A stretch of 24,991 nucleotides of DNA from a virus (IMGVR_UViG_2706794664_000002); one strand, 5' to 3'. Counted from the stretch's first letter, positions 1-9,677 are shown. Translations and numbers: made by a program. The notes: a model not told the origin generated them from the sequence alone.

Positions 1-85
1 AGGGACAGCTGATAGAAACAGAAGCCACTGGAGCACCTCAAAAACACCATCATACACTAAATCAGTAAGTTGGCAGCATCACCAG
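1..85 (-). mobile_element. IS1 insertion sequence, left terminus plus first codons of insA (partial; element body continues beyond window start)
   Basis: Reverse complement of 1-85 reads GGTGATGCTGCCAACTTACTGAT (IS1 terminal inverted repeat, window 63-85) and continues through the GTG start of insA (complement of 26-28), matching the IS1 left end as I recall it. Not checked against a database. Confidence 0.8.
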
Positions 86-402
86 CCTTCTTGAGGCTAC
101 CACCTGTTTTCAGGTGTCATTCAGACGTGATTTGCCCCAGATTGGGAAAGCACGCTTTTTTCTCAGCTATCGTCCTCTTATTTTGCCGTTACATTTCTTT
201 TTGCACTCTAATGATTAATTTACAATAATAATATCGGTAATTATTGAGTAATAATAAATTGATTATTGCAAATGTAATTTAATTCCATCTTCGCGTTATA
301 TTCCAATCTTTAATCTCCGCATGGAACAAGTTGCATGCGTGACTATATTAAGACAACTTATAACCACCAAAACATTTGCTTTGCAAGCAAAAACAGTGAC
401 CA

Positions 403-431
403 TTGACTCTAAGAAAATTCCGATCTATTGT
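403..431 (+). promoter_or_regulatory. Candidate sigma70 promoter (-35 TTGACT 403-408, 17-bp spacer, -10 TATTGT 426-431)
   Basis: Hexamers with near-consensus -35 and a 17-bp spacer, upstream of a small ORF and a downstream terminator. AT-rich context makes chance matches likely. Confidence 0.2.
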
Positions 432-465
432 TAGGGTCATCAAAGTTACTTAACAGTATTCCGAA

Positions 466-567
466 ATGAAAATACAAAGCAAGCTAATTGTCTTATTAAA
501 CATTATTATTGCATTTATATTATTTGAGCTTTTAGCTCAAAAATTTGGTTTGAGTACATTATTTTAA
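466..567 (+). CDS. Hypothetical 33-aa hydrophobic peptide (MKIQSKLIVLLNIIIAFILFELLAQKFGLSTLF)
   Basis: ATG at 466 to TAA at 565-567, translated by hand; a single predicted transmembrane-like stretch. No clear Shine-Dalgarno, so it may be non-coding. Confidence 0.15.
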   Translation: MKIQSKLIVLLNIIIAFILFELLAQKFGLSTLF

Positions 568-716
568 AGCAAGATAAACAATATCGGGCACTCTAGTTTT
601 TATAATTAACAATTAAACGTCCATAAAATGTTATTTACTTTTCTTCGCTATTGTCATATCTTAATATAGTGGCTTACGCCACTCTACTTTCATCACATTT
701 TGTACGTTTATGTACT

Positions 717-746
717 CGCCATGAAGCTCTTTCATGGCGATTTTTT
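717..746 (+). terminator. Rho-independent terminator (9-bp stem CGCCATGAA / TTCATGGCG, 5-nt loop, T6 tract)
   Basis: Perfect inverted repeat 717-725 / 731-739 followed by TTTTTT at 741-746 on the plus strand. The minus-strand reading has no U tract, so it is unidirectional. Confidence 0.5.
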
Positions 747-832
747 ATTCTTAATCCAAGAACATACTCCCTACCTATAGCAAAATCACTTTTTTAACAA
801 AAGAATAACGTATTTAGGTAATCATTACGAAT

Positions 833-1285
833 TTACCCTATAGGTGCTACTGGCCATTCAATATCCGGTGCAGTTGATGTATCAACACGGTTCAGCAACA
901 CCCGATACTTTTTCCAGGCTTCCAGCAACAAGGTTTCTTTCTCCGTTGCGATCTCCAGATCCACAGCATCCTGAAGCGGCGCTATATGCTCACTGGCTAC
1001 CTGCATCAGGCTGTTTTTTGTTTCTTCCGCCTCCCGGATCCGGAACAGTTTTTCTGCTTCCGTATCCTTCACCCAGGCTGTGCCGTTCCACTTCTGAAAC
1101 TCCCCTTCCGGGGATAACCAGGTGACATTTTCCGGTAATGAGCCGAGTTCAGAAATAAATAACGCGTCGCCGGAAGCCACGTCATAAACCGTTTTACCCC
1201 GATGATCTTCAACGAGATGCCACGATGTTTGCAGGCAGACCTGTATGAGGCGGAATATATGCGTCACCTTCACCAATAAATTCAT
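833..1285 (-). CDS. tfa: Tail fibre assembly protein Tfa, C-terminal domain ORF (150 codons from an internal ATG)
   Basis: Translation ...[28 protein letters not shown]...[22 protein letters not shown] matches the lambda Tfa C-terminal region; stop at 833-835. The lambda-like N-terminus lies in a different frame (see next feature). Confidence 0.75.
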
Positions 1286-1349
1286 TAGTTCCGGCCAGCA
1301 GGTTATAAATTTTTATGGTCCGTGCTTGTTCACTCATTCTGAATGCCAT
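1209..1349 (-). pseudogene. tfa: tfa N-terminal fragment (46 codons, [46 protein letters not shown]), out of frame with the C-terminal ORF
   Basis: Hand translation from the ATG at complement 1347-1349, which overlaps the stf stop as TAATG, reproduces the lambda Tfa N-terminus and then hits TGA at 1209-1211. About 20 codons present in lambda Tfa between PAN and SWHLV are absent, and the two halves differ by one frame. Confidence 0.5.
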
Positions 1350-4025
1350 TATGCGAGCCTCACAATATAGTTAAATGCGATGTTTTTGACGGTGTTTTCC
1401 GCGTTACCAGCAGCGTTAACGGTGATGGTGTGTCCATGTGAACCAATCGCAACAGAGTGCGTATGAGCACCAATACCGACAGTATGCGCGTGTGCACCCG
1501 CAGATGCTGCTGTGCCGGACAGTGAGTGTGTATGGTTTCCTTCTGAAGATGATTTACCTACCCATTGGGAGGTGCCACTGGTTAATGAGCCACTGATACC
1601 AACCTGATTAGTCCCGCTAACTTGAGTACTCCCTGCCGGAAACATTCCAGTAGGTTGACTCCCGCTATTCGTTCTGGGCCCAGTCTGACTATGTTGGTGG
1701 GCCCCAGCTGAACTTGTAGAGCCGCTCAGACTGTGCGTATGCGCCCCGGTGTTATTCGTGGATTTAGTGCCGTAATCAAACGACGATGTGGTTTTCGTCC
1801 CCAAATCCGTACTGGATGCGCTGGCGCTGTGGGTGTGCGATTTAATGCCATCCTGTTCCTGAGACAATACGGCACGACCACTGGCGGGCTTGCCCTTAAT
1901 CGTCCAGCCACGCATATCAGGGATCACGCCTGACGGATAAGCGGCTGCAAGTTTCGGGTAAGCAGATTTGTCAAAAGTCTGCCCCTGCATCAGGGCATAA
2001 CCAGACGGAACGGTATCTGATGGCCACGGGATTGGTGCACCGACTGGATAAAACTCTGCAGGAGGATGAGCCGAGGTGTAAAGCTGCGCCCACGGCGACC
2101 AGTTTGCGTCGGTCGTATCCCGTCGTGAACGAATAAATGCCGGAGCATGAGCACCGCTTGTACCACTCCAGCCGATGAGTAACTCACCTTCGCCAACGGC
2201 TGTCATCCCTTTCAGGTGAATGATATTTCCATACGCTGTTGGATATCCGTTGTTATACACCTCGTATAACTCAAGACCTGCTGCCCCCTGCGTATTGTCT
2301 GTCAGCGCGGCTACCCGACCTTTTGAAGCCAGATTAACTGATGATACTGCTGTTCCACCTGACGGTAGCGCCCCGATCTCTGATGCCGTTGGCTTATTTC
2401 TGGAGTTATAGTCCCTTCGCCAGCCAGGTGAATAATCTGTTCCGTGATTAATATAGGTAAACTGGGCGTTGGTTGTTCCGCCACCGCTGGATGTGGTCGG
2501 AGTGGTAATGCGGATCGTCATCGCTGACTTTATCCCCATTACTTCAATGACAGCTCCGGCGAGATGAATATTACCGCAGCCAGTATCAGTAATGATTTTA
2601 TTATTGCCATAAGACCAGGAACCCTTGCACATCCAGTATGGATGGTTAAATGCTCCCTGAGAATCCAGCCACTCGATAAACTGTGCAGTCGTCCAGTTTC
2701 CTGTTGTTGTGCTTACTGACCCACCGAAGGCACGGCAGGCACCAATATTTTTCGTAAAGGTGTCTTTGCCAGGGATATCCGCACCGTTCTGATCTTTCTG
2801 CAGACGTTTCTCAGCATTGTCATTGGCTGCTTTTACTGCCTTTGGCGTTGCCGCCAGCGTTTCAGACGTGCTGTTGGTCGCGCTGCTTAGCTGGATTATC
2901 CCTTTCTGTGCTGTCGTTGCATCCTGTGCGGTGTATTTCCCGTTAGCCAGGTCATACGCGGCCTTAACGGCTTTTGGTGTTGCCGCCAGTGACTCGGAAG
3001 TGCTGTTAGTCGCACTACTGAGCTGTACTATCCCCTTTTTCGTCGTGCTCGCATCCTCAAGCGCCACGGCGGATGCAATATCCTCTGCCCGTTTTGCCGC
3101 TGTCTCAGCGCGCGTTGCTGCAGATTCCGCCGTACTTTTGCTCTGAGCTGCTGCCGTCGCACTACCAGCAGCCTCTGTCGCCTTCGTGGATGCCGTCGTG
3201 GCGCTGCCCTTCGCTGCTGACGCCTGTCTGGTCGCCTCATCTTTTGAAGCAGACGCCGATGATGCCGATGACGCCGCCGAACTGGCGGACGATGCGGCAG
3301 CCGTTTTTGAGGATTCTNNNNNNNNNNNNNNNNNNNNNNNNNNNNNNNNNNNNNNNNNNNNNNNNNNNNNNNNNNNNNNNNNNNNNNNNNNNNNNNNNNN
3401 NNNNNNNNNNNNNNNNNNNNNNNNNNNNNNNNNNNNNNNNNNNNNNNNNNNNNNNNNNNNNNNNNNNNNNNNNNNNNNNNNNNNNNNNNNNNNNNNNNNN
3501 NNNNNNNNNNNNNNNNNNNNNNNNNNNNNNNNNNNNNNNNNNNNNNNNNNNNNNNNNNNNNNNNNNNNNNNNNNNNNNNNNNNNNNNNNNNNNNNNNNNN
3601 TGATTTCTTCGCGGCTGCCGTGTTCTGTGCCACCGCGGACGCGTTACGCGCCACCTCTTCCACCATCAGCTCAAAACGGCGCAGTGCCTCCGGACGGGCA
3701 TCATCCTCCGTCATGGCACCGAGAAAATCATTCAGNNNNNNNNNNNNNNNNNNNNNNNNNNNNNNNNNNNNNNNNNNNNNNNNNNNNNNNNNNNNNNNNN
3801 NNNNNNNNNNNNNNNNNNNNNNNNNNNNNNNNNNNNNNNNNNNNNNNNNNNNNNNNNNNNNNNNNNNNNNNNNNNNNNNNNNNNNNNNNNNNNNNNNNNN
3901 NNNNNNNNNNNNNNNNNNNNNNNNNNNNNNNNNNNNNNNNNNNNNNNNNNNNNNNNNNNNNNNNNNNNNNNNNNNNNNNNNNNNNNNNNNNNNNNNNNNN
4001 NNNNNNNNNNAATCTTTACTGCCAT
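1349..4025 (-). CDS. stf: Side tail fibre protein Stf (interrupted by N blocks 3318-3600 and 3736-4010)
   Basis: N-terminus MAVKI... at complement 4023-4025; internal [33 protein letters not shown]; C-terminal half with His-rich GAHxHS repeats ending [16 protein letters not shown] (stop 1349-1351). Frame changes across the N blocks, so the length is approximate. Confidence 0.85.
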
Positions 4026-4034
4026 ATTCACCCC

Positions 4035-4063
4035 ACAAAAAAGCCCGCCTGAACCGGCGGGCT
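4035..4063 (-). terminator. Rho-independent terminator between lom and stf
   Basis: On the minus strand: 8-bp GC-rich stem (4056-4063 / 4042-4049), 6-nt loop, then a U tract (plus-strand A run 4035-4041). Confidence 0.5.
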
Positions 4064-4089
4064 GTCATAACACTGTGTTACCTGGCTAA

Positions 4090-4667
4090 TCAGAATTTAT
4101 AACCGACACCCACGATGAAACCGTCAGTGCGCCAGAGACGTGTTGCTGTGGCGACCGTCATCACTTCCGGTCAGCACATCGTGCGTTTTCCCCTTATTGT
4201 CAGTTACGCGGATATAATCCCCGGAAAAAGTCGACACACGGCTGTAAGCCACACCCACCATCGCATACGNNNNNNNNNNNNNNNNNNNNNNNNNNNNNNN
4301 NNNNNNNNNNNNNNNNNNNNNNNNNNNNNNNNNNNNNNNNNNNNNNNNNNNNNNNNNNNNNNNNNNNNNNNNNNNNNNNNNNNNNNNNNNNNNNNNNNNN
4401 NNNNNNNNNNNNNNNNNNNNNNNNNNNNNNNNNNNNNNNNNNNNNNNNNNNNNNNNNNNNNNNNNNNNNNNNNNNNNNNNNNNNNNNNNNNNNNNNNNNN
4501 NNNNNNNNNNNNNNNNNNNNNNNNNNNNNNNNNNNNNNNNNNNNGTTGGTCCGGGCATGAAGATACCCCGCGCTCAGCGTGGACTGATGTTCAGACGCCC
4601 ATGCAGGCGCACCGGATACGGCCAGGCAAATGGCTGCGGACAAAATGGCTGCACAAACTTTACGCAT
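4090..4667 (-). CDS. lom: Outer membrane protein Lom (Ail/Lom family beta-barrel), lysogenic-conversion moron; interrupted by N block 4270-4544
   Basis: N-terminus MRKVCAAILSAAICLAVSGAPAWASEHQSTLSAGYLHARTN (signal peptide) after a GAGG Shine-Dalgarno; C-terminus ...GFIVGVGYKF* with stop at 4090-4092. Confidence 0.85.
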
Positions 4668-4737: not shown

Positions 4738-7700
4738 TCAACGAATACTGATGCCGGAAGCCGCTTTTTTGGTCACAATCACCGTACAGTCGGTGATATT
4801 GCCTGCCCCCTGATTGCCTTTCTGGAAAATCTTAAACTCCAGAGTGACGCTACCACCACCACTAGGCATATCAATAACTGCACTGTAACTACCGGGAATG
4901 GCACCTTTAGTTTCTCTGGATGCGATTAATACGCCGTTTTTGCGAACTTCAAAACCATAACCCGTGTATCGCGTGCCTCCTGGGTTATTTCCGCTCCCCG
5001 GATCGTCATACGCTATACCGTTAAAAATAATGGGCGGAATAATAATCTGGCGGTCAAAGTTATGATCATCGCTTATGGTGACTGTAACCGTCCCGTTTGG
5101 TGTTTCCGTGTTACCCCACGTACCAGCCTGTTTCGGAAATGATTTGGATACAGCTTTAACGAAGTCACCTCTGACCTGAGTCGCCTCCAGCATGCCCTTA
5201 ATCGTACAGTTTTCATTTACCGTGACATTGTTGAGCGTCCCGGCGTTCGCATTCACACTGCCACTGATATCCGCATTTTTAGCGGTCAGCTTTCCGTCCG
5301 GAGTCAGGGAAAATGCCGATGGATTTCCACCGCTGGTAATGGTGGGGGCCGTCAGGCGTTTCAGGAACACGTCGTTCATGAATATCTGATCGCCCTGACC
5401 AACAAACATCGGTTTTGTGTTGCCATTCGCAGGATTAACCATCGCAATCCTGTCCGCCGCCAGCAGCACCTGACTCTGCATGCCGTCAGGGGTGTTCTCA
5501 ATACCGGCACCAATACCCGCGATATAAAGGCGTCCGTCCTGCATCTGCTGCAGCTTCACAGCCCACATGCTGTTCAGGTTATTATTTGTATCAACCTGAA
5601 CCTTCTGTATCTGCTGAATTGCCGCACTCTGGTCTTCCAGTTTCTTATTGACGGTCTGCGTGATTTCATTGCTGACATCCGTAATGGACGTCCTGATTTC
5701 AGCCAGGTCAGGCGCAAGCTGACCGTTATCAATCTGCGTCCACAGCTCCTGAGCCAGATGGGTTTTCCCTATCTCGCCTTTGAAAAAATCCAGATAACCG
5801 GATGCATCATCACTCGGCTGACCAACAGCCTCCACGAATGCCGATTTGCCAACGGTGTTCACACTGCGGATATAAAAGTAATAATCATGGCCCGGTTTGA
5901 TATTGATACTGGCGGCTATCCAGTACAGCGCCGTGCCAAGATAGCGTGCTGTGGTTTCAACCTGCCTGATATCCGCAATCCGCTTTTCCGAGAACCAGAA
6001 CTCAAACTGTACCGTCGGATCATAAACCGCAAGATGCGGCGTGGCGGTTATCTGAAAATAGCCCGGCGTCAGCTCAATCCGCGACAGCGCTGCCGGTGCG
6101 GCAATCCGGAACGATACCGACGCCGGATCGCCCTGCTGCCCCCACGCATTTACTGCCCGGACTGTCAGCCTGTAGTTCCCCAGCGCCAGTTGTGTGAAGC
6201 GGTAAGTGGTTTCCGTCGTCCGGGCCGTGCTGACCAGCCGCTCACTGCCGTCATCCGCTGTTACGGTCAGACGGAGCAGGAAGCTCACGCCCTTCACCAC
6301 CTTCGGCGTGTCCCAGCGCGCCAGCACCTGATATTCCCCGCTGTCTGCGGTGACTTCGGCAGTCAGGTGCTGCACCGCTGGCGGCGTGACACCATTCACC
6401 GTGCCGCTCTGGTCGCCGTCAAAGTGCGCCCCGTTATCCACGATGGCTTCTTTTTCCGGCACATGCTGCACGGCGGTGATGGCATACGTGCCGTCGTCGT
6501 TCTCACGGATACTCACGCAGCGGAACAATCGCTGGTGCAGCGTCGGCAGCTTCAGCCCCCACACGCTGTATTCAGCAACACCGTCAGGAACACGGCTCAC
6601 TTTTACCTTCACGCCGTCGGTGACGGACTGGACCTCCACGCTGACCGGATTCCCCTGCCCGTNNNNNNNNNNNNNNNNNNNNNNNNNNNNNNNNNNNNNN
6701 NNNNNNNNNNNNNNNNNNNNNNNNNNNNNNNNNNNNNNNNNNNNNNNNNNNNNNNNNNNNNNNNNNNNNNNNNNNNNNNNNNNNNNNNNNNNNNNNNNNN
6801 NNNNNNNNNNNNNNNNNNNNNNNNNNNNNNNNNNNNNNNNNNNNNNNNNNNNNNNNNNNNNNNNNNNNNNNNNNNNNNNNNNNNNNNNNNNNNNNNNNNN
6901 NNNNNNNNNNNNNNNNNNNNNNNNNNNNNNGCCCCCGGCTGGTACAGCCAAAGGCATCCATCTTCGTGACGTTACGACCGTAACGGACAATGGCCTGCGT
7001 ATCCTCCACAAGCTCTGTCGCCGTCTCCCAGCCGTTATCCGGGTCAATCCAGTTCACCTCAACGGCATTATGGCGGTCTTTCAGGGCGCTGAAACTGTAG
7101 CGGAACGGCGCGCCATCATCCGGCATCACCACATTACTGCGGTTATAGGCCCACACCTTATCCGACTGTCGGTCCTGCACGAACGTCAGCGTCTGCCCGT
7201 TCCATACCGGCATACAGCGCATCGCCGAGCAGAAATCACTGAGCACATCCCACGCCTTGCGCTGTGTGGTCAGCCAGGCATTACAGGTGATGCGCGGCTC
7301 CGTGCTGCCAAAGCCGTCCGGCACCGACTGGTCACAGTACTGGCCGATGACATACAGCGCCCATTTATCCACATCTGCCGCACCAAGACGTTTCCCCATG
7401 CCATAGCGCGGATGGGTCAGCATATCCCACAGACACCAGGCCATGTTGTTGCTGTATGCCGGTTTTAACGTTCCGTCCCAGATACCGCTGTATTGCCGCG
7501 TCTGCGGATTATAGTTCGACGGCACCTGCAGAATGCGCCCGCGAAGATGATAATTACGGCTCACCTGCTGGCTGCCGAACTGCTCCGAATCCACCTGTAC
7601 GCCGACCAGTGCCGTGTTCGGGTAGCACTGTTTCACATCGATGATTTCGGTGTATGACGACCAGAGCGTTTTGTTCTGCAGCTGGTCTGTGGTGCTGTCC

Positions 7701-8257
7701 GGCGTCATTCTGCGCATCCGGATATTAAACGGGCGCGGCGGCAGGTTATCCACCACCACCGAGGCCAGATACTGCGAGGTGGTTTTGCCCTTAATGGTGA
7801 TGTCTTTTTCCGTCACCCAGCCACCGTTACGCTGTATCTGAACCAGCAGGCGAACTTCAGACGGATTCCTGTCTCCCTTTGAGGTGGTTTCCACCAGTGC
7901 CTGTACACCGAAGGTAAAACGCAGTCGGTCAATGTTTGCCGACGTGATGGTCCGGGTGATCGGCGTGTCATATTTCACTTCCGTACCCAGCACCGTCTCG
8001 GAGCCGGAGGATTCAAATCCCTCCGGCGGTGACTGCTCCTGCTCACCTGCCCGGAACACCACCGTGACGCCGGAGATGTTGGTATTCCCCTCACTGTCCA
8101 GCACCGGCGTACTGTTCAGCAGCACGCTTTTTAATCCATCCACCGGACCTTCAACCGGCCCTTCGCTGATGGCATCGATCACACTCAGCAGCTGCGTGGA
8201 CTTCAGGTTGTCCTTCGCTTCGCGCGGGGTATGCCCCTTACTGCTGCCTTTACCCAT
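4738..8257 (-). CDS. J: Tail tip / central tail fibre host-specificity protein J (N block 6663-6930 inside)
   Basis: N-terminus [54 protein letters not shown] is lambda J; long ORF continues to the stop at 4738-4740. Two track ORFs (6584-8257, 4738-7047) join across the N block. Confidence 0.92.
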
Positions 8258-8989: not shown

Positions 8990-9677
8990 TTGTCGGTATA
9001 CCTCTCTCGTTTGCTCAGTTGTTCAGGAATATGGTGCAGCAGCTCGCCGTCACCACAGTAAATGGCGGCATGATTCGGCACCGATGAACCAAAACAGCAC
9101 AGCAGCACATCGCCCGGCTGCGCCGCTGACAACGGCACCTGATACAGCCCTGTGGCCTCCAGATTATCCAGATAGAGATTCTGACCGTGACGCCACCAGT
9201 CATCCTCACGATGAAAATCCGGCATCTCAATCCCCGCCAGATGGTAAGCATCCCGGAACNNNNNNNNNNNNNNNNNNNNNNNNNNNNNNNNNNNNNNNNN
9301 NNNNNNNNNNNNNNNNNNNNNNNNNNNNNNNNNNNNNNNNNNNNNNNNNNNNNNNNNNNNNNNNNNNNNNNNNNNNNNNNNNNNNNNNNNNNNNNNNNNN
9401 NNNNNNNNNNNNNNNNNNNNNNNNNNNNNNNNNNNNNNNNNNNNNNNNNNNNNNNNNNNNNNNNNNNNNNNNNNNNNNNNNNNNNNNNNNNNNNNNNNNN
9501 NNNNNNNNNNNNNNNNNNNNNNNNNNNNNNNNNNNNNNNNNNNNNNNCCGGCTCACCGGAGATATTCACGCAGGGGAAATATCTTTCCCCCTCCGGCGTT
9601 CTTACCACGAAGCCGCACGACTCCGCTGGAGCACATCGCCGGGCGTGCGCCAGAATCGCTGATTCTGTCTCTGTCAT
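8887..9677 (-). CDS. K: Tail tip assembly protein K (MPN/JAB-like N-terminal part plus NlpC/P60-like C-terminal part); N block 9260-9547 inside
   Basis: N-terminal ORF MTETESAILAHARRCAPAESCGFVV... and C-terminal ORF ...PGDVLLCCFGSSVPNHAAIYCGDGELLHHIPEQLSKRERYT... (Cys/His catalytic motifs) flank the N block; stop at 8887-8889. Confidence 0.88.

Follow-up and report, generated by a model that had tools for sequence, protein, structure and literature searches.

The minus-strand gene at positions 1349-4025 of the viral DNA IMGVR_UViG_2706794664_000002, the whole analysed stretch of 24,991 nucleotides hereafter being called the window, is with high probability the side tail fibre gene, stf, of a lambda-like E. 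coli prophage, belonging to an allele family which has already been sequenced and annotated. As judged from sequence comparisons, it is assembled from modules that are already known in phages lambda, P2, P1, Mu and T4. The architecture, as shown by homology, consists of a putative N-terminal anchor, an Ala/Ser-rich shaft, two copies of PF03406, a centre with two knobs, and a collar, needle and tip of the gp37 type. The initial annotation had described a mosaic Stf whose two ends are of the lambda type and whose centre is not, which was borne out by the alignments, and mosaics of this kind do assort among E. coli prophages. The protein is not literally a standard lambda Stf, but the gene is still a standard one, a member of an already described allele family.

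Position, visible parts and state of the stf gene

From the open reading frames and their translations, stf extends on the minus strand from an ATG at 4025 to a TAA at 1351-1349. The minus-strand gene order is J (4738-8257), lom (4090-4667), stf and tfa (833-1349), the same as in lambda, mEp460 and PhiR68_2, and the stop codon of stf shares one base with the start codon of tfa (TAATG). Two runs of N, at 3318-3600 and 3736-4010, interrupt stf at a total of 558 masked positions and hide its true length, its frame continuity and most of the N-terminal domain. Three pieces are visible: the first codons (MAVKI, 4011-4025), a piece of 45 amino acids (LNDFLG...AAAKKS, 3601-3735, minus strand) from the lambda-type N-terminal, tail-attachment domain, and a C-terminal part of 655 consecutive open codons (3316-1352). 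The latter begins with the end of an Ala/Ser-rich repetitive shaft (3074-3316, minus strand), the remainder of which is masked, and which gave several low-identity internal self-matches when set against the shaft of relatives.

The piece of 45 amino acids (3735-3601) is 100% identical to residues 88-132 of the PhiR68_2 Stf and 87% identical to residues 86-130 of the lambda Ur Stf. It falls inside the phage_tail_N domain (PF08400), which spans residues 1-134 in relatives and on which the PhiR68_2 Stf scores 239 bits; 50 of the approximately 134 residues of this domain are visible in the window stf. No family was matched in an NCBIfam search of the visible Stf protein. In the related records of PhiR68_2, mEp460 and SPF_0923 the homologue is labelled side tail fiber protein.

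Both neighbours of stf carry frameshifting deletions. Alignment to the tfa of the E. coli MP1 prophage showed that the tail fibre assembly chaperone gene (tfa, 833-1349, minus strand) is present in a deleted form, lacking 65 nt at 1226/1227, so that reading from the ATG at 1349 reaches a stop after 46 codons. A complete PF02413 domain is found in the +1 frame, in an ORF of 150 amino acids (833-1285) which has its own ATG and scores 151 bits. When complete E. coli genomes were searched with the tfa junction, the best 12 of the matches listed all carried the extra 65 nt. In lom, a frameshifting deletion of 83 nt is flanked by CTGGCG microhomology, and the end of an IS1 element is found at window positions 1-84. 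Given the deletions in tfa and lom and the IS1 end, this end of the prophage is therefore eroding.

The decay could have reached stf itself, which would then be a pseudogene whose frameshift or large internal deletion is masked by the N runs; this is possible but rather doubtful. The state of the two neighbours and the IS1 end are in line with it, as is the block at 3318-3600, where four relatives have 442 nt more, and a literal count of the N positions leaves each of the three visible pieces of stf in a frame of its own. The lengths of the N runs, however, differ from the homologous lengths at five out of five blocks tested against mEp460 (by -37, -22, -61, -35 and +442 nt), including blocks within J, lom and other tail genes, and the same offsets were obtained at the three blocks that were also compared with E. 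coli MLI023K1, MP1 and BH100N. Since they disagree with the homologues at every tested block, the N-run lengths are uninformative on the reading frame of stf, and frame continuity across the N runs was dropped as a line of evidence. The view of the initial annotation that the gene is not frameshifted holds for each visible piece, all of which are open, while the relative frames of the pieces at face-value N lengths are uninterpretable. Against decay stand also the 655 consecutive open codons and the comparison with the MP1 allele, from which stf differs by 16 synonymous and 5 non-synonymous codons (dN/dS of 0.087 over 518 codons). Owing to the frameshift in tfa, normal assembly of the fibre of the window is improbable, and even an undamaged stf may need Tfa from another prophage to give functional fibres.

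The central module, the collar and the tip

The centre of the protein is a module of 252 amino acids of the P2 gpH / P1 Sv' / Mu S' type (2057-2812, minus strand; residues 169-420 of the visible part), which consists of a Cys-containing knob (about 2372-2812, minus strand), with cysteines at residues 194, 230 and 247 of the visible C-terminal part, and a second knob (about 2057-2371, minus strand). The Cys block had been noted as unlike anything in lambda Stf, and alignment confirmed that it is absent from the lambda Ur Stf, but it is not an unrecognised domain. A phmmer search of solved structures matched the Mu S' structure in PDB entry 8JU3, labelled Mu gp52, G(-) fibre (PMC11821841), with an E value of 2.5e-86 and approximately 80% identity over residues 167-330. 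A structure prediction of the centre, as proposed in the initial annotation, was also run. The AlphaFold monomer was poor (mean pLDDT 62, with the second knob below 60), and this low-confidence model served for one fold search only, in which Foldseek returned 8JU3, a known fold, as the sole significant match (E 8e-18 over 250 columns). The second knob alone had no match among PDB sequences with phmmer, and it is tied to 8JU3 only through the fold search of the whole module.

Searching 50,697 phage records by tblastn with the centre (257 amino acids) as the query identified P1 Sv' (73% identity, with 96% of the query covered), P2 gpH (81% within the first 153 amino acids), Mu S' (70%) and P2-like Yersinia phages (85%), and the second half of the centre was also found in the Gifsy-2 Stf and in fibres of Goslar and Vibrio phages. 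Residues 168-564 of P2 gpH and residues 1-419 of the visible part are 54.6% identical. By these comparisons the centre is not novel, but represents the classical P2 gpH / P1 Sv' / Mu S' module, for which a structure has been solved. As in the window, the module is accompanied by one or more PF03406 repeats and has two knobs in P2 gpH, P1 Sv' (the C(-) fibre) and Mu S' (the G(-) fibre, gp52). These are, however, fibres of phages with contractile tails, they differ at their N-termini and distal ends, and they lack the gp37-type needle. The N-terminus of P2 H belongs to PF12571, unlike that of the window stf, the two knobs of P1 Sv' are in the reverse order relative to the window, and in P1 and Mu the module lies within an invertible segment.

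The P2 H / Mu S'-type module might form a second, lateral receptor-binding site, giving the fibre two specificities, one in the knob and one in the tip, but this is unlikely. Comparison of BH100N with MP1 shows that the module is swapped as a cassette without the tip, its homologue in Mu and P1 is located in the host-range-variable, invertible part of S', and LPS is recognised by Mu fibres (PMC11915804). In Mu S' and P2 H, however, further C-terminal domains follow the module and form the distal end, and among alleles with differing tips the module is nearly invariant, with 97-100% amino acid identity. A structural element of the shaft is the role suggested for the central module by the present analysis, and that its knobs would be a lateral receptor-binding site which is swapped independently of the gp37-type tip was given slightly less credence still than the existence of such a site.

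The centre is followed by a phage tail collar domain (1898-2041, minus strand; PF07484, 46.5 bits against a cut-off of 24, residues 426-473) and a needle and tip of the gp37 type (1352-1897, minus strand), identified by seven HxH boxes, PF03335 and the match to 2XGF. With the collar included, visible residues 422-655 match the T4 gp37 tip in 2XGF with an E value of 2.4e-82. The His-rich, lambda-like tip of the initial annotation was found again in the seven HxH boxes (at residues 494, 526, 540, 595, 609, 618 and 627), which are at the same positions as the seven boxes of the T4 gp37 tip. The C-terminal end of Stf is ...[11 protein letters not shown]. Only between HxH boxes 3 and 4 does the 2XGF alignment fail, and here comparison with relatives identified a hypervariable tip cassette of approximately 55 amino acids (approximately 1535-1705, minus strand). 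No nucleotide match to mEp460 was found between 1704 and 1545, and in a protein alignment the cassette was unlike in each of five relatives, which have five different tips. Among 5426 complete E. coli genomes, 25 contain at least 80% of the length of the window's cassette, 24 of them with 100% identity, and it was found in none of the 50,697 phage records. This hypervariable segment, a real difference from the closest phages, had not been singled out in the initial annotation.

In gp37 the receptor-specificity region is flanked by conserved tip sequences (PMC9659904), and the tip cassette of the window aligns to the region termed the receptor-specificity domain of gp37 in the same study. The cassette is thus probably the receptor-specificity segment of the fibre. 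In the window this segment is longer than its counterpart in T4 gp37 and unrelated to it, and the chaperone of the window is of the Tfa type (PF02413), whereas that of T4 is gp38.

Relatives, the PF03406 repeat and the exchange of cassettes

The Stf of Ur-lambda (774 amino acids) shares with the window stf the PF08400 N-terminus, the Ala/Ser shaft, the PF03406 motif, the collar and the HxH needle, and its last 40 amino acids are identical to those of the window. It has only one copy of PF03406, a different and shorter centre without the Cys block, and another tip cassette, with an additional SFDYGTK repeat and HxH box. The closest phages are more similar: the visible 655 amino acids are 91-93% identical to the Stf of PhiR68_2, mEp460 and SPF_0923, and essentially all of the remaining protein difference from these relatives lies inside the tip cassette. 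The visible 1969 nt have 97-98.5% nucleotide identity over 90-91% of their length with PhiR68_2 (PV340576), PhiR42_1, mEp460_ev081 (LR597641) and SPF_0923 (ON032529). These four have the J-lom-stf-tfa order and the N-terminal pieces as in the window, the same two copies of PF03406 and the same collar and needle, and a centre with 97-100% amino acid identity, but their tip cassette is unrelated to that of the window. In PhiR68_2 and mEp460 an intact tfa is followed downstream by a Pin-type invertase (Ser recombinase), and in SPF_0923 by sitD/sitC, whereas the window has the frameshifted tfa and the IS1 end, and no invertase. At least 80% of the 1969-nt query was covered in 643 of the 5426 complete E. 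coli genomes.

The centre and tip allele of the window was found in the Stf of the E. coli MP1 prophage (WP_071996362) and in 10 other complete genomes, MP1 being 98.6% identical to window positions 2905-1226 at the nucleotide level without gaps. In contrast to the window, MP1 and the 10 other genomes have one copy of PF03406 instead of two, and both tfa and lom are intact in MP1. In BH100N the tip and the two repeats of the window are combined with an unrelated centre; its match to the window stops at approximately 2814, at the end of repeat 2, and restarts at approximately 2055, at the start of the collar. The window thus differs from its relatives in three cassettes, namely the number of PF03406 copies, the central module and the tip of approximately 55 amino acids. 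Among close E. coli relatives, repeat number, centre and tip assort independently, with boundaries in conserved flanks. The exact combination of repeat, centre and tip present in the window was absent among the top matches in complete E. coli genomes, and the window stf amounts to a trivial recombination of parts already known. Horizontal transfer of stf between unrelated phages is described as well documented, and lambda recombines with the stf/tfa regions of Rac and Qin (PMC3945230).

The motif KGI(V/I)[11 protein letters not shown](S/T)[11 protein letters not shown] is present in two copies, as the initial annotation had stated, but these are 44 residues apart and not approximately 40. The direct DNA repeat reported with them is also real, but it is longer than the approximately 70 bp first given, with arms of 107 nt on the minus strand at 2951-3057 (copy 1) and 2819-2925 (copy 2, located 132 nt or 44 codons downstream of copy 1), which are 74% identical (79/107). 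None of 20 codon-shuffled controls had more than 56/107 matches, and with correction for all pairs the binomial probability of the repeat was approximately 3e-19. Both copies were assigned to PF03406 (Phage_fiber_2; unit of approximately 42 amino acids) by a score above the gathering threshold, the visible Stf having 127.5 bits against a cut-off of 22 in two stretches; the Pfam match of copy 1 covers residues 90-130 (2927-3049). Between the copies, the core motif is identical at 26 of 29 amino acids, with 77% nucleotide identity, synonymous differences affect 17 of the 44 codons, and no identical run exceeds 11 nt. The two copies have been kept as protein and have diverged as DNA.

The number of PF03406 copies is one in lambda Stf, two in BH100N and PhiR68_2, and four in P2 gpH. 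The single copy of MP1 agrees with copy 1 at every informative site on the 5' side and with copy 2 at every one on the 3' side, the one-copy allele being a precise 132-nt hybrid with the switch inside the QLSSAT codons, and MLI023K1 shows the same pattern. As read from these sequences, the hybrid alleles would be compatible with a change in either direction between one and two copies. Because the identical runs are only 11 nt, RecA-type exchange between the two copies of the window should be rare, and because both copies precede the centre and the tip and have the same orientation, such an exchange only adds or removes 132 nt and cannot swap the tip.

The suggestion that the repeat could drive tip swapping was therefore not upheld, and it is very improbable that it serves as a dedicated switch for frequent recombinational tip exchange in this genome. 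The one-copy hybrid alleles of close relatives, with their crossover within the motif, would fit such a switch, and a module boundary does coincide with the end of repeat 2, as the breakpoints of BH100N show; yet the direct arrangement allows only deletion or duplication of 132 nt, and the repeats share no longer identical run than that given above. No invertase-like ORF of at least 50 amino acids was found in window positions 1-833, and neither an inverted repeat involving stf nor an alternative tip segment was found in positions 1-4100. An invertible tail-fibre switch of the Gin/Cin/Pin type in the window was likewise rejected, there being no invertase gene and no inverted repeat involving stf.

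A novel Cys-containing domain unseen in tail fibres can be dismissed as an explanation of the centre, since, although it is absent from lambda Stf and Pfam gave no family above the cut-off (PF21446, the T4 gp34 trimerisation domain, reached 18.4 bits against 27), it is ruled out by the sequence and fold match to the solved structure 8JU3, by the 70-81% identity to Mu S', P1 Sv' and P2 H in tblastn, and by 587 protein-database homologues at E ≤1e-5, some of which are 100% identical over the module.

Proposed function of the fibre and its implications

As a lambda-like side tail fibre, the protein would be anchored as a trimer to the tail tip by its lambda-type N-terminal domain. The HxH boxes would form an iron-box needle, with coordination of iron by analogy with the gp37 tip, and Tfa (PF02413) would act as the folding chaperone that is needed to fold the tip. 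The homologues suggest that the choice of receptor would be set mainly by the segment of approximately 55 amino acids between HxH boxes 3 and 4. OmpC is bound by the Ur-lambda Stf (bioRxiv 10.1101/2022.09.30.509847), and the receptor of T4 gp37 is OmpC/LPS (PMC9659904).

The mosaic structure may be explained by conserved stretches, namely the PF03406 motif, the beginning of the collar and the HxH boxes, which flank the variable cassettes and would offer the homology through which phages and prophages recombine. Phage Rad52-type recombinases may help homologous recombination at such conserved linkers, while unequal exchange between the two PF03406 copies would result in a change of copy number only.

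If the central knobs did form a lateral receptor-binding site, lambdoid side fibres would carry two separately swappable specificities, and PF03406 would be a universal recombination linker with a copy number that tunes the length of the fibre. The repeat, the centre and the tip architecture are all long-described modules of tail fibres, and near-identical alleles are found in described phages and in hundreds of E. coli genomes. The window neatly illustrates, on a small scale, the construction of tail-fibre genes from cassettes joined by conserved linkers, with little import beyond annotation; for the prediction of host range or the engineering of fibres, the relevant piece would be the tip cassette of approximately 55 amino acids at approximately 1535-1705.

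Undetermined stretches and reading frames

The window contains ten runs of N, each of 255-288 nt (for example 3318-3600, 3736-4010, 4270-4544, 6663-6930 and 9260-9547). The length of a run was never equal to that of the homologous sequence, the offsets being -37, -22, -61, -35 and +442 nt, of which -61, -35 and +442 nt were seen again in further relatives, and reading frames across the runs are therefore meaningless. The +442 nt offset may also reflect an Ala/Ser shaft that is shorter in the source.

Deletions in tfa and lom

Compared with the aligned relatives, the tfa gene (833-1349, minus strand) lacks 65 nt, and the deletion junction is at 1226/1227. The frame starting from the ATG at 1349 reaches a stop after 46 codons, and the PF02413 (Tfa) chaperone domain is entire in the +1 frame, in an ORF of 150 amino acids (833-1285). 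All 12 of the best complete E. coli genome matches listed for this junction had the undeleted form. The lom gene (4090-4667, minus strand) has an 83-nt deletion (junction 4130-4135), bordered by a 6-nt direct repeat, CTGGCG (microhomology), which shifts the frame ahead of the C-terminal ...DGFIVGVGYKF.

A strong terminator-like hairpin (4042-4063, minus strand; 8 bp, 7 of them GC, followed by a T run) is located between the lom stop and the start of the side tail fibre gene stf, approximately 15 nt upstream of its ATG, and expression of stf would therefore require read-through (late antitermination).

The left edge and the prophage end

The left edge of the window (1-84) is an IS1 terminus: positions 1-1227 matched E. 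coli MLI023K1 without a break (98.5 %), and the match continues into the IS1A annotated there. An AT-rich spacer follows (84-830), in which there is no ORF of at least 50 amino acids past about position 230. In E. coli MP1 and BH100N the sitABCD operon is on the far side of this spacer, so stf-tfa marks the prophage end. The closest phages, PhiR68_2 and mEp460, have a Pin-type serine recombinase directly after tfa (L001 5630-6220 and L002 5630-6220), whereas the window, MP1 and BH100N do not.

Repeat and domain order in the side tail fibre

Pfam did not report the fibre repeat PF03406 for the Stf of MP1 (L010 1961-4909) at E ≤ 0.001, despite its single copy being plainly present; this is probably an effect of filtering or bias in a low-complexity protein.

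In the Sv' protein of phage P1 (L006 2363-3919), the order of the two sub-domains that form the stf central module (2057-2812) is reversed. In the visible 655-amino-acid C-terminal part of Stf, residues 310-415 match Sv' residues 47-153, and residues 129-315 match Sv' residues 168-358. The reversed order exemplifies domain permutation between fibres.
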